The position numbers and the translations under genes are program-made. Below are positions 36,423 through 61,004 of a DNA stretch of 64,000 nucleotides, piece after piece; position 1 is the first letter of the stretch, and the number at the start of each line of letters is the position of its first letter. Below the pieces are notes generated by a model. It had not been told where the DNA came from. It did not search any database and saw only the letters and a program-made list of their open reading frames with translations. The DNA is from Escherichia coli. Its GTDB lineage: Bacteria > Pseudomonadota > Gammaproteobacteria > Enterobacterales > Enterobacteriaceae. The stretch lies in the NCBI RefSeq assembly GCF_050320075.1, contig NZ_CP190018.1. One strand, written 5' to 3'.

Positions 36423-37166
36423 ATGTCTATCACGGCGCAGTCCGTATACCGTGACACCGGAAATTTCTTCCGTAATCAATTTATGACCATTCTGTTGGTA
36501 TCGTTGCTATGTGCGTTTATCACAGTGGTGTTAGGGCATGTTTTCTCACCCAGTGATGCACAGCTTGCGCAGCTCAATGACGGCGTGCCCGTTAGCGGCA
36601 GTAGTGGGTTGTTCGACCTGGTTCAGAATATGTCACCGGAACAGCAACAAATTTTGCTGCAGGCTTCAGCGGCGTCCACTTTTTCAGGATTAATCGGTAA
36701 CGCCATTCTCGCCGGAGGCGTAATATTAATTATCCAGCTGGTGTCTGCGGGTCAGAGAGTCAGTACGCTGCGAGCTATTGGTGCCAGTGCGCCGATATTG
36801 CCAAAGTTATTTATTCTGATTTTTCTGACTACCCTTTTAGTACAGATTGGCATCATGCTGGTGGTCGTTCCGGGAATTATCATGGCCATTTTACTGGCCC
36901 TGGCACCGGTGATGTTGGTACAGGACAAAATGGGCGTTTTTGCCTCGATGCGTAGCAGTATGCGGCTGACTTGGGCGAATATGCGTCTGGTGGCACCCGC
37001 AGTACTGAGCTGGTTGCTGGCAAAAACACTGTTGCTGCTTTTTGCCTCTTCTTTTGCCGCATTAACCCCGGAAATTGGTGCCGTACTTGCGAACACCTTG
37101 AGCAACCTGATTTCAGCCATACTGCTCATCTATCTGTTCCGCCTGTATATGTTGATTCGCCAATAA
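36423..37166 (+). CDS. yciC: UPF0259 inner membrane protein YciC, 247 aa
   Basis: 247 aa multi-pass membrane ORF; position between ompW and yciB. Confidence 0.85.
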
Positions 37167-56633: not shown

Positions 56634-57647
56634 TCATTCTGCAGACAACATCAAGCGAAGCCGACCACCGGTTCCCCATATTTGGCATTGCCAGGCATCG
56701 CATCGCTGGCTCAATTGATTCAAATAAGCGTTACCTAAAGTGCCTAACGGAACACCATTACTGATTTGCACCTGGTGTTCGCCAGTATTTAATGTCGCAT
56801 TCAGACCCGCAGAAACCAGAATGAAATTTTTCAGTTCGCGATGATAATAGCCAACTAATAGCGGAAACTGCCCCGGTAGATTGGCCTGACGGAGTAAATG
56901 GTTTACCTGCTTCAATAACGCGCCCAACTCTGGCAACCGTTGATTTTGATGTGCAAGCTGTTCCTGTAATAATCCGTTAAACAATGCGCGTAATAACAAG
57001 GCAGCAAGTACGCCATTATGTCCAGCTCGGGTGACATCAAGGCAATAAAATGCCAGATCGTTTTCCGAAAGTGCGGCAATATCAAGCACCAGGCCGGGTT
57101 TGTCCGCGGCAACCAATTGACGATAATTAACCCGGCAATGGGAAATCACCTGCTGAACCGGCGGTTGCAATTCCTGTAATAATTTCGCCGCTGCGGCAGG
57201 GTTATCAACCATTGCATCCCAGTCGCGAAAAAGCCTCTCCTCTTCCTCAACGCGGGAATTAAACATGCTGGGATAGAGACAGGCAAAAACCATCTCGCGC
57301 AAGCGATTCAGATCTTTAACTGGTTTCAGCAAAACATCTTCAACGCCCAGACGTAACGCTTTGGCAATATCTGCCATATTTTCAGTGGCAGATATCACCA
57401 GAACAGGTGTCTGGTCGCCTCTGTTACGTATATGCTCCAGCAGTTTAAGCCCGTTCATTCGTGGCATCGCGATATCACATATCATCAGGTCTGGAGTGAA
57501 ACCTCCCAGCAACTCAAGGGCATCCACCCCATCAGCCGCCAGTACCGTTGTCGCTCCCAATGAGGAAAACCACGAATCCAGAAGCGAGCGAAATACCTGC
57601 TCATCTTCAACAATGAGAATCTGTTTTCCGACCAATGGCTGCGTCAT
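56634..57647 (-). CDS. rssB: Response regulator / RpoS adaptor RssB, 337 aa
   Basis: N-terminal receiver domain (ILIVEDEQ...DLMICDIAMPRMNG) with C-terminal PP2C-like domain. Confidence 0.9.
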   Translation of the reverse strand: MTQPLVGKQILIVEDEQVFRSLLDSWFSSLGATTVLAADGVDALELLGGFTPDLMICDIAMPRMNGLKLLEHIRNRGDQTPVLVISATENMADIAKALRLGVEDVLLKPVKDLNRLREMVFACLYPSMFNSRVEEEERLFRDWDAMVDNPAAAAKLLQELQPPVQQVISHCRVNYRQLVAADKPGLVLDIAALSENDLAFYCLDVTRAGHNGVLAALLLRALFNGLLQEQLAHQNQRLPELGALLKQVNHLLRQANLPGQFPLLVGYYHRELKNFILVSAGLNATLNTGEHQVQISNGVPLGTLGNAYLNQLSQRCDAWQCQIWGTGGRLRLMLSAE

Positions 57648-57738
57648 GTTCTCTCCCCTGACTGGCTTTACTCAATAGTGGCATGCTATTGCCACCTGCG
57701 CCTGTCAGAATTAACTTAAGTGTAGATAAAAATTCTGG

Positions 57739-58644
57739 TCAAATGTTGGTGCGTACCAACGGCAAAAGTTCATCCATTTTCTTTTCCACTGCCAGCTGCC
57801 CAGCCGCAATGGCAGCGTGCGCGCGATGGAAATCAAGCGTAGATATTTGCGGGCAAACAGGTTGAATCAGAATATCGGGCGGATCACCTGCCATGCGGTT
57901 CCTTTTAAGGCGGTTCTCCAGCACTTGGATAGAAGTGGTCATAATCTCTGTTGCCGTTGGCGCTGTCACCGCCCGACGTGTCGTTATGCTGCCCAACCTT
58001 TCTTTCAGACGCGCATGCCACGGCAGAGAATCACCATTCTCGCTATTTTCTTCACTAACATTAAAGGAGAGCAGATCTTGTTGCATCAAATGAGCATCGT
58101 GCTGCAGGTCGACCGCTATCACAATATCAGCACCCAATGCACGCGTGAGCGAAATAGGAATTGGGTTAACTACAGCGCCATCAACCAGCCAGTAGCCGTT
58201 ATGCGCAACGGGTGCCATTAGTCCTGGAATACTGCATGATGCACGAATAGCAAGATGGAGATCGCCTTCAGTAAACCATAATTCGCGCCCAGTACTTAAA
58301 TTGGTGGCAACAGCCGCGAAGCGACGGGAACAATTTTCGATCTCTGTTTCCGGCATTATTTCGCGATATTGATTGAAGACACGCTCGCCGCGCAGTAACC
58401 CACCGCGCTGCCAGGAGAGATCCATCAGGCGTAAAACATCCCAATAACTGAAAGAGGTCACCCAATCTTCCAGCGCAGATAGTCGATCGCATGCATAGGC
58501 AGCGCCCACCAGCGAACCAATTGAACATCCTGCAACGATATCAATTTCAATACCCACTTTTTTTAGCGCATTAATAACGCCAATATGCGACCAACCTCTC
58601 GCCGCGCCAGATCCCAGCGCCAGCCCTATTTTTATCTTTCTCAT
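57739..58644 (-). CDS. rssA: Patatin-like phospholipase RssA, 301 aa
   Basis: Patatin motifs GSGAARG and GCSIGS (GXSXG). Confidence 0.85.
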   Translation of the reverse strand: MRKIKIGLALGSGAARGWSHIGVINALKKVGIEIDIVAGCSIGSLVGAAYACDRLSALEDWVTSFSYWDVLRLMDLSWQRGGLLRGERVFNQYREIMPETEIENCSRRFAAVATNLSTGRELWFTEGDLHLAIRASCSIPGLMAPVAHNGYWLVDGAVVNPIPISLTRALGADIVIAVDLQHDAHLMQQDLLSFNVSEENSENGDSLPWHARLKERLGSITTRRAVTAPTATEIMTTSIQVLENRLKRNRMAGDPPDILIQPVCPQISTLDFHRAHAAIAAGQLAVEKKMDELLPLVRTNI

Positions 58645-58756
58645 TATTCCCGCAAGATTCCCCTGGAATGCAATCGTAGCAACATCGCTACTGCTCGGTT
58701 AACATAGTGCTACTCAGGCGGTTAATACGCCGTTATTGTTTCCAGGGAGATTATTT

Positions 58757-59215
58757 GTGTCTCAGCTTTGTCCCTGTGGTAGTGCTGTCGAGTATAGCCT
58801 ATGTTGCCACCCTTATGTGTCTGGTGAAAAGGTTGCACCTGATCCAGAACATCTCATGCGTTCGCGTTACTGCGCTTTTGTGATGAAAGACGCAGATTAT
58901 TTAATAAAGACCTGGCATCCATCTTGTGGAGCGGCGGCGTTACGTGCCGAATTGATTGCCGGATTTGCGCATACTGAATGGTTAGGATTGACCGTATTTG
59001 AACATTGTTGGCAGGACGTCGACAATATCGGATTTGTCAGTTTTGTTGCGCGATATACCGAAGGTGGCAAAACAGGTGCAATCATTGAACGTTCGCGATT
59101 TTTGAAAGAAAACGGTCAATGGTACTATATTGACGGTACACGTCCGCAGTTTGGCCGCAACGATCCCTGCCCTTGTGGTTCAGGTAAAAAATTTAAAAAG
59201 TGCTGCGGCCAATAA
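58757..59215 (+). CDS. ychJ: UPF0225 protein YchJ with N- and C-terminal SEC-C metal-binding motifs, 152 aa, GTG start
   Basis: ORF 58736..59215 trimmed to the GTG at 58757 (RBS gggaga 6 nt upstream); CPCGS...CC motif at both ends. Confidence 0.8.
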
Positions 59216-60265: not shown

Positions 60266-60350
<85 letters not shown>

Positions 60351-60384
60351 TCTCAAGCATTACCTCAAAATTTGAATTACCCCT

Positions 60385-60469
<85 letters not shown>

Positions 60470-61004
60470 TCACTTTCAAAAGTCCGTGAACTCTCAAACG
60501 AATCCGCGATTAAATATTCTGCCCATGCGGGGAAGGATGAGAAGCTTCGACCAAGGTTCGACTCGAGCGCCAGCGAGAGAGCGTGGCCGCAGGCAACGAC
60601 CCGAAGGGCGAAGCGCGCAGCGCTGAGTAATCCTTCCCCCACCACCATAACTTTCAAAAGCCCCGGAATTCTCAAACGAATCCGCAATCAAATATTCTGC
60701 CCATGCGGGGAAGGATGAGAAGCTTCAACCAAGGTTCGACTTGAGCGCCAGCGAGAGAGCGTTGCCGCAGGCAACGACCCGAAGGGCGAAGCGCGCAGCG
60801 CTGAGTAATCCTTCTCCCACCACCATCACTTTTCAAAAGTCCGTGAACTCTCAAACGAATCCGCAATTAAATATTCTGCCCATGCGGGGAAGGATGAGAA
60901 GCTTCGACCAAGGTGCGACTCGAGCGCCAGCGAGAAAGCGTTGCCGCAGGCAACGACCCGAAGGGTGAAGCGCGCAGCGCTGAGTAATCCTTCCCCCACC
61001 ACCA
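60470..61004 (+). repeat. rtT: Three tandem 178/179-bp tRNA-derived repeats distal to tyrV (rtT RNA / tpr region)
   Basis: Units 60470..60647, 60648..60825 and 60826..61004, each ending with the tRNA-Tyr 3' segment aatccttc[c/t]cccaccacca; a partial fourth start follows. Confidence 0.85.
60525..60626 (+). CDS. tpr: Arg-rich protamine-like small ORF (Tpr-like), 33 aa, in repeat unit 1
   Basis: Hand translation [33 protein letters not shown]; unit 2 copy has a premature stop, unit 3 copy is a 28-aa variant. Whether it is translated cannot be judged from sequence. Confidence 0.4.

Follow-up and report, generated by a model that had tools for sequence, protein, structure and literature searches.

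What does a small protein with a SecA-type cysteine motif at each of its two ends do in Escherichia coli? The gene that raises this question lies in a 64-kb stretch of E. coli DNA, which was analysed as a whole and is referred to here as the window, and it is the known E. coli core gene ychJ. The gene and its ribosome-binding sequence are placed as follows.

58757..59215, plus strand: ychJ coding sequence, 459 nt with a GTG start and a TAA stop, encoding 152 aa (translation, RefSeq annotation and NF002449)
58745..58749, plus strand: Shine-Dalgarno sequence GGGAG, 7 nt 5′ of the GTG (read from the sequence)

In RefSeq, ychJ is annotated with the same start and coding sequence as 'YchJ family protein', in an E. 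coli genome that is 100% identical there. The coordinates, GTG start, translation and rssA and purU neighbours that the original prediction had given for the gene are therefore correct, the RefSeq coding sequence being identical. It had also been stated that the ORF track misses ychJ; in fact the mechanical ORF list contains the frame, opened at a TTG 7 codons upstream (58736), and only the start is mis-set there. The position of the Shine-Dalgarno sequence favours the GTG at 58757 over this TTG as the start of ychJ, and in the locus comparison the AGGGAG before the gene is kept in S. enterica. The NCBIfam equivalog model NF002449 matches YchJ end to end over residues 1-152 with 293 bits (cut-off 141). 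Of 5426 complete E. coli genomes, 5397 cover at least 80% of a 2.7-kb query that runs from the 3′ end of rssB to just past purU and has ychJ inside, several complete chromosomes being 100% identical to it. The YchJ protein encoded here shows 98% identity to the E. coli cluster that is commonest.

We show that the product of ychJ is a 152-aa cytoplasmic protein in which an NTF2-like core is placed between two SecA-type Cys4 motifs, and its three parts are encoded as follows.

58757..58813, plus strand: N-terminal SEC-C motif, residues 1-19, with Cys5, Cys7, Cys16 and Cys17 at 58769-58807 (PF02810)
58841..59137, plus strand: central NTF2-like domain, residues 29-127 (PF17775, YchJ_M-like; AlphaFold2; Foldseek)
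59156..59212, plus strand: C-terminal SEC-C motif (SecA-type metal-binding domain), residues 134-152, with Cys138, Cys140, Cys149 and Cys150 at 59168-59206 (PF02810)

The strict pattern C-x-C-x8-C-C is present at residues 5-17 and 138-150, in the form CPCGS-x3-aromatic-x2-CC. It had been proposed that both termini are SEC-C motifs, with a failure of HMM searches to recognise either of them named as the refuting outcome. That search was run with each terminus as an isolated peptide, and both peptides were recognised by the Pfam SEC-C model (PF02810) above its gathering score of 20.4, the N-terminal one with 31.2 bits (E 1.9e-7) and the C-terminal one with 47.0 bits (E 2.3e-12). The HMM scans, the conservation within the family and published metal data all bear out the claim that two SecA-type metal-binding motifs flank a central domain; the size of about 110 residues given for that domain has to be corrected, however, as the PF17775 match spans 99. 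In the six frames of the window, the pattern C.C.{8}C[CH] is matched 3 times, and 2 of the 3 matches are the YchJ motifs within the one 152-aa ORF. The third match (36990-37028, minus strand) was rejected as a chance occurrence, being out of frame and antisense to a 247-aa membrane ORF, and the weak Pfam matches of YchJ to Choline_bind_1 (18.1 bits, cut-off 20.5) and DCP2 were set aside as sub-threshold. The explanation that the YchJ motifs themselves are a chance pattern, or that ychJ is not a real gene, deserves practically no credence: nothing speaks in its favour, only 0.29 matches to the pattern are expected in the whole window, both motifs score above a curated HMM threshold, the region is present in almost every complete E. 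coli genome, homologs number in the thousands, YchJ has been purified (10.1101/613315) and the structure of an ortholog has been solved (9VXG and 9L6B).

The two motifs, the metal content and the idea of a SecB or ribosome association are already published, and are also covered by Pfam and NCBIfam, so the observation holds but adds nothing new. The E. coli proteins with a CXCXnC(H/C) motif that were compiled by Cranford-Smith et al. (10.1101/613315; J Biol Chem 2020) include YchJ. In the same study, purified YchJ contained 1.30 ± 0.17 zinc per protein, described as 'consistent with two MBDs', along with some iron; the protein was yellow, a colour associated with iron, and aggregated upon dialysis with EDTA.

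Both motifs have the conserved serine and aromatic residue that correspond to Ser889 and Tyr893 of SecA, namely S9 and Y13 at the N terminus and S142 and F146 at the C terminus. When compared with what we take to be the sequence of SecA 878-899, of which PDB entry 1SX0 confirms the central 20 residues, the C-terminal 22 residues of YchJ are identical at 16 of 22 positions, and these include the basic residues that contact SecB. This count agrees with the published value of 73% identity between the two segments (10.1101/613315). In the C-terminal motif, the SecB-contact basic residues are R134, K144, K145, K147 and K148, whereas the same positions of the N-terminal motif hold A10, V11, E12, S14 and L15, so that the basic residues are absent there; it has been reported previously that this second motif keeps the serine and aromatic residue and lacks the SecB-contact residues (10.1101/613315). 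Since only the C-terminal copy keeps the SecB-contact residues, the two motifs cannot be called a duplicated SecA-like hook as far as function is concerned. The C-terminal metal-binding domain of SecA (1SX0, 1TM6 and 1OZB) resembles the YchJ motif in its CxCx8C(C/H) pattern, its serine and aromatic residue and its basic face. The fourth ligand is His in E. coli SecA (1SX0) and Cys in YchJ, and the Cys-x-Cys-x8-Cys-Cys form that had been ascribed to the SecA C terminus in general is that of B. subtilis SecA, while E. coli SecA ends in C-H. In addition, the motif is attached to an ATPase in SecA and to an NTF2-like core in YchJ, which also has the second, non-basic copy at its N terminus.

This similarity to SecA is the starting point for a rival explanation, according to which YchJ is a SecB- or ribosome-associated factor whose C-terminal domain docks there, so that the NTF2-like core comes close to nascent or pre-secretory proteins, and which might compete with SecA. 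A binding of YecA and YchJ to SecB or the ribosome was put forward as speculation (10.1101/613315), and later papers repeat it for YchJ (10.1101/2020.07.21.215244; PMC9039743). The C-terminal 22 residues of YecA/AscA, which consists of a UPF0149 domain and a C-terminal SecA-like domain, are 77% identical to those of YchJ, and both proteins copurify with zinc and iron (10.1101/613315). For YecA, binding of this domain to SecB and to ribosomes has been reported (10.1101/2020.07.21.215244), though in a preprint only, and the protein differs from YchJ in having another body domain and a single motif. In E. coli, deletion of ychJ increases Congo-red binding and biofilm formation in LBG medium, and it raises hEGF secretion by 28%, an effect on secretion that the authors read as relief of SecA competition (PMC9039743), although large-scale screens gave no secretion phenotype for ychJ (10.1101/613315). 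The match to the SecB-contacting residues of SecA and the strong conservation of K145, K147, R134 and N135 within the family, described below, also speak for a docking role, and such a role would suit a family that reaches beyond rssB-bearing taxa. On the other hand, the residues that contact SecB are missing from the N-terminal motif, the neighbours of ychJ in the loci examined include no sec, secB or ribosomal gene, no report of YchJ binding to SecB or the ribosome was found in the searchable literature, and the same C-terminal lysines are reported to be needed for DNA binding in Salmonella (PMC13377102). Taken together, we consider it unlikely that an association with SecB or the ribosome is what YchJ is for.

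What then does the core of the protein contribute? PF17775, the model for the YchJ middle NTF2-like domain, matches residues 29-127 with 107.7 bits (cut-off 22.7). The AlphaFold2 model of YchJ, for which the family alignment served as input, has a mean pLDDT of 96.9 and a pTM of 0.90 with no low-confidence segment, and the C-terminal motif is predicted with a pLDDT of 92-97. Both motifs are modelled as bridge, bridge and three-residue helix, offset from each other by exactly 133 residues and in register with the cysteines. Sequence matches in the PDB are the Salmonella YchJ entries 9VXG and 9L6B (E 1e-71), and in a Foldseek search the model superimposes on 9VXG with a target-normalised TM of 0.97, an rmsd of 0.7 Å and 77% identity. 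The next matches are 2JQ5 (target-normalised TM 0.93) and 2I9W, followed by NTF2-like enzymes. No transcription factor is found among the 50 listed Foldseek matches (E up to about 1e-3), and Pfam and NCBIfam scans found no DNA-binding domain in YchJ.

Beyond its own relatives, the fold neighbours of YchJ are limonene epoxide hydrolase, ketosteroid isomerase and a CaMKII-association-type domain. It could hence be argued that the NTF2-like core is the functional part and forms a small-molecule-binding or catalytic pocket, with the Cys4 knuckles serving mainly for structure or metal storage and the effects on rssB and RpoS being indirect. Invariant or nearly invariant polar residues of the core, L33-M34-R35-S36-R37, E111 and S113 in the family alignment, look like a functional site, some subfamilies are wholly without the C-terminal motif, and the aggregation of YchJ on metal stripping fits a structural metal (10.1101/613315). 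However, the identity to NTF2-like enzymes is only 14-19% at a TM of about 0.5 (Foldseek), there is no known ligand or activity, and the C-terminal basic face is conserved to an extreme degree, which points to a macromolecular partner. Furthermore, a C149S/C150S variant fails to complement in Salmonella, which indicates that the C-terminal motif matters there (PMC13377102). We hold this explanation to be quite improbable, with the reservation that the roles of rssB repressor, SecB or ribosome factor and NTF2-like pocket protein are not mutually exclusive.

The conservation of the two motifs was followed in an exhaustive HMMER search with the YchJ family against 1.84 billion cluster representatives, which found 10,731 proteins with an E-value of 1e-3 or lower, 2,288 of them at 1e-10 or lower. 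Full-length sequences make up 135 of the best 150, and both CxCx8C[C/H] motifs are present in 128 of these 135 diverse representatives, the remaining 7 having mostly variant spacing or being fusion proteins. In an alignment of 134 sequences, the invariant residues are C5, C7, C16, C17, R37, E111, F115, C138, C140, K145, K147 and C149. Seven of the eight motif cysteines are thus invariant, the exception being position 150, which is C in 105 and H in 23 of the 128 representatives with two motifs. Of the other motif positions, the conserved serine is present in 109 of 128 N-terminal and in all 128 C-terminal motifs (Ser142), and an aromatic F or Y occupies position 146 in 111 of 128. R134 is found in at least 90% of the family sequences, and R134 and N135 are nearly invariant. 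The C-terminal family motif starts with (R)N, ends with (F/Y)-K-(K/R)-C-(C/H) and has an invariant basic face, whereas the N-terminal family motif keeps the cysteines, serine and aromatic residue without conserved basic residues.

Subfamilies exist that end directly after the core and have no C-terminal motif, namely 2JQ5 (128 aa), NF003262 (129 positions) and NF002502 (150 positions), and YchJ matches the latter two only up to residues 127-128. Since these subfamilies, which have nothing beyond the core, still possess the N-terminal knuckle, we infer from the family data that it is an integral structural part of the YchJ fold. By the same family data, the C-terminal knuckle, with its invariant basic face, would be an added module for interactions.

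The only function of YchJ with experimental backing is that of a peroxide-responsive rssB repressor, and the work was done in Salmonella (Wang et al. Nat Commun 2026, PMC13377102). That paper describes the structure of Salmonella YchJ (PDB 9L6B and 9VXG), in which zinc is bound to Cys5, Cys7, Cys16 and Cys17, and a ΔychJ mutant that is H2O2-sensitive and attenuated in macrophages. As also described there, YchJ represses rssB only under H2O2, as seen by qRT-PCR and with an rssB promoter-lacZ reporter, and RpoS accumulates. The protein was found to bind the rssB promoter and a 24-bp palindrome with a Kd of 8-64 µM in EMSA and 1 µM in BLI, and the promoter was enriched in ChIP-qPCR. H2O2 led to a DTT-reversible YchJ dimer, and dimerisation, DNA binding and complementation were all lost in the C149S/C150S variant. 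The DNA contacts are claimed to be the C-terminal lysines together with R112 and R114, with R112 called essential for binding; the dimer and its complex with DNA were modelled with ColabFold and MD. The paper takes the C-terminal cysteines for free thiols that are exposed to solvent in a loop of high flexibility. In our 134-sequence alignment of the family, R112 is not conserved.

E. coli YchJ is a member of the same YchJ/UPF0225 family (PF17775 plus PF02810; NF002449) and shares with Salmonella YchJ the gene order and eight conserved cysteines. The two proteins are 77% identical over residues 1-130 of the 9VXG chain, and within the last 25 residues there is a single difference (F132 in place of L). 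Cys149 and Cys150, the claimed switch cysteines, are both present in the E. coli translation. From the family, E. coli YchJ differs in nothing of substance, and Salmonella is the one genus in which the peroxide/rssB function has been demonstrated. Three further features were placed in the DNA next to ychJ.

56634..58644, minus strand: rssA-rssB operon (annotation), by orthology the YchJ regulatory target reported for Salmonella (PMC13377102)
58645..58756, no strand assigned: divergent rssA-ychJ intergenic region, with a conserved block GTTAACATA at 58698-58706 and a small GGCG/CGCC hairpin at 58717-58734
57673..57696, minus strand: 24-nt candidate operator upstream of rssB, read by eye, in which two 6-bp dyads interleave (GGTGGCAATAGCATGCCACTATTG)

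In E. coli, rssB and rssA are divergent upstream of ychJ, and purU follows 49 nt downstream, then two tRNA-Tyr genes, three RtT repeats and narI; the layout around ychJ is the same in K-12. The order hns-galU-rssB-rssA / ychJ-purU is common to the E. coli, two Salmonella lineage and Klebsiella loci, and a more distant locus (55% identity) keeps galU-rssB-rssA / ychJ-purU with a UDP-glucose dehydrogenase gene in place of hns. E. coli, Klebsiella and both Salmonella lineages share the block GTTAACATA. For the ychJ-rssA intergenic region, a ChIP peak of sigma-S RNA polymerase has been reported together with transcription start sites for both genes (PMC4447067), and when carried over from K-12 coordinates these start sites would be placed in the same region of the window.

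The GGCG/CGCC hairpin is not claimed as a regulatory element. Single-sequence folds show a hairpin in 4 of 4 enterobacteria, but their energies are no better than those of shuffled sequences (z -0.2 to -1.3). RNAalifold predicted no pairs for the ychJ leader from five loci, in which the hairpins are misaligned, and a promoter and terminator scan gave sites no more numerous than in shuffles.

E. coli and S. enterica hardly differ in the 70 nt upstream of rssB. The candidate operator at 57673-57696 is identical at 21 of 24 positions in S. enterica, though its arms are short enough to have arisen by chance. An inverted-repeat search of 57550-58800 (rssB-rssA-ychJ) for the published 24-bp palindrome gave three short palindromes and no others, all of them within the coding sequence of rssA, and upstream of rssB or rssA in E. 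coli only 6-bp dyads and no strong palindrome were found.

Since the gene order is conserved, the region upstream of rssB is nearly identical and a sigma-S ChIP peak lies between the divergent genes, it is plausible that the Salmonella model also applies in E. coli, by orthology. On balance, we lean slightly towards a reading in which YchJ is an NTF2-like core with two SecA-type motifs that would form a peroxide-induced dimer and repress rssB, as in Salmonella, and in which the C-terminal motif would act as a metal-thiolate switch. As transferred from the Salmonella ortholog, peroxide would oxidise the C-terminal cysteines and a disulfide dimer dependent on Cys149 and Cys150 would form; the lysine-rich C-termini of this dimer would then bind upstream of rssB in the divergent rssA-rssB operon, RssB would fall and RpoS would be stabilised. 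Some caution is called for with the transcription-factor model, which comes from one paper on another genus and involves a weak, micromolar DNA affinity and no known DNA-binding fold. The E. coli ΔychJ phenotypes (PMC9039743) are not obviously predicted by lower RpoS. Among known peroxide responses, OxyR-type sensors resemble Salmonella YchJ, as claimed, in that a reversible disulfide controls DNA binding under H2O2. Unlike OxyR, however, YchJ has neither a LysR-type helix-turn-helix nor any recognised DNA-binding domain, it binds DNA with micromolar affinity, and it forms an intermolecular disulfide.

The view of the C-terminal cysteines as free thiols is in conflict with the metal stoichiometry of YchJ published in 2020. 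Purified YchJ held more than one zinc per chain (10.1101/613315), position 150 alternates between C and H, and AlphaFold2 predicts a confident knuckle with the conformation of the zinc-bound N-terminal one, and together these suggest that the reduced C-terminal motif may be a folded metal knuckle rather than a free-thiol loop. The alternation at position 150 is what the fourth metal ligand shows in SecA, whereas a disulfide partner would not be expected to vary in this way. The sequences of the family thus favour a metal ligand at this position.

Zinc-thiolate redox switches such as Hsp33 and the RsrA/ZAS anti-sigma factors have a Cys4 metal site that loses its metal on oxidation, and the disulfides that form alter oligomeric state or activity. 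By analogy only, as YchJ has no sequence or fold relationship to these proteins, the reduced C-terminal motif could be a metal-bound knuckle from which oxidation first ejects the metal, and thus a zinc/iron-thiolate redox switch. A metal-thiolate switch of this kind would reconcile the metal data of 2020 with the disulfide data of 2026. An extended version would give the switch two partners, such that the reduced, metal-loaded C-terminal knuckle docks on SecB or the ribosome and peroxide causes loss of zinc or iron, formation of a Cys149 disulfide dimer and binding to DNA at rssB. We think this version very improbable; if true, it would likewise reconcile the 2020 and 2026 papers and explain the alternation of C and H at position 150.

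It seems unlikely that rssB control is the general role of the YchJ family, and at most it may be an enterobacterial specialisation. The family is widespread, with named homologs beyond the enterobacteria in Bacteroidota (e.g. Flectobacillus), Desulfobacterota (Pseudodesulfovibrio), a Chloroflexi MAG and Alphaproteobacteria in the profile search, and the neighbours in the four loci sampled are unrelated. Three distant representatives (P0168, P0257 and P0144) lie on contigs of 0.8-1.5 kb with an uninformative neighbourhood, and homologs on long contigs from the profile search were used instead. In four such non-enterobacterial contigs, including those of Flectobacillus, Pseudodesulfovibrio and Dasania, no rssA/rssB-type neighbours of ychJ were found, and the neighbours are also unrelated to each other.

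As a finding from a sequence scan, ychJ matters little: the gene, its motifs and its metal content are in the literature, and a function of the Salmonella ortholog has been reported since. Its remaining value lies in a testable disagreement about the C-terminal motif of YchJ, which is either a metal-bound SecA-like domain or a free-thiol disulfide switch. Were the switch with two partners true, YchJ would link the secretion or translation apparatus to the stability of RpoS. As the family reaches well beyond rssB-bearing bacteria, its general role is probably another than rssB control.

Both termini of YchJ carry a CxCx8C[CH] motif, the metal-binding cysteine pattern of the SecA type, and in a six-frame translation of the window the sole further match outside ychJ was found at 36990-37028 on the minus strand. 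This match lies antisense to an ORF for a 247-aa membrane protein (36423-37166, plus strand) and is a chance occurrence. Two structures of the Salmonella protein have been deposited. PDB 9L6B consists of three chains of 60, 60 and 32 residues, which when joined give the full protein, while PDB 9VXG contains a 131-residue chain that ends at protein residue 130 and is without the C-terminal motif. There is therefore little direct evidence from structures on the state of the YchJ cysteines at this end.

Downstream, the region 60266-61004 (plus strand) is the already known tyrT-tyrV/rtT locus, in which a tRNA-Tyr pair is followed by three tandem RtT RNA repeats, each scoring 127-132 bits against Rfam RF00391:

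60266-60350, plus strand, tRNA-Tyr(GTA) gene 1
60385-60469, plus strand, tRNA-Tyr(GTA) gene 2
60516-60647, plus strand, RtT RNA repeat 1 (RF00391)
60694-60825, plus strand, RtT RNA repeat 2 (RF00391)
60873-61004, plus strand, RtT RNA repeat 3 (RF00391)

An arginine-rich peptide frame is found among the mechanical ORFs that span these repeats.

Two further elements were located:

57673-57696, minus strand, GGTGGCAATAGCATGCCACTATTG, upstream of rssB, with two interleaved 6-bp dyads
58717-58734, plus strand, small GGCG/CGCC hairpin followed by a T-run, in the ychJ leader

The dyads of the first element are GTGGCA/TGCCAC and CAATAG/CTATTG, and 21 of its 24 positions are identical in S. enterica. 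It might be the counterpart of the published 24-bp YchJ operator (Wang et al. 2026; PMC13377102), but dyads of such short length are within chance.

A ychJ start site has been given in a sigma-S ChIP-seq study (PMC4447067), and our own coordinate mapping places it at approximately 58712. The block GTTAACATA (58698-58706) in the rssA-ychJ intergenic region, which is common to E. coli, two Salmonella lineages and Klebsiella, fits as a candidate -10 element for this site. The stem of the leader hairpin is likewise kept in all four species compared, with variable loops, and its folding energy was no better than that of shuffled controls. For rssA, the table of this study lists a start site at 1288329 in K-12 (version 2) coordinates. 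Presuming that the paper uses the older K-12 numbering, offset by 777 from NC_000913.3, this site maps to approximately 58783 on the minus strand, within codons 9-10 of ychJ. Given this numbering, ychJ and rssA, which are transcribed divergently, would produce transcripts that overlap head-to-head by approximately 70 nt.
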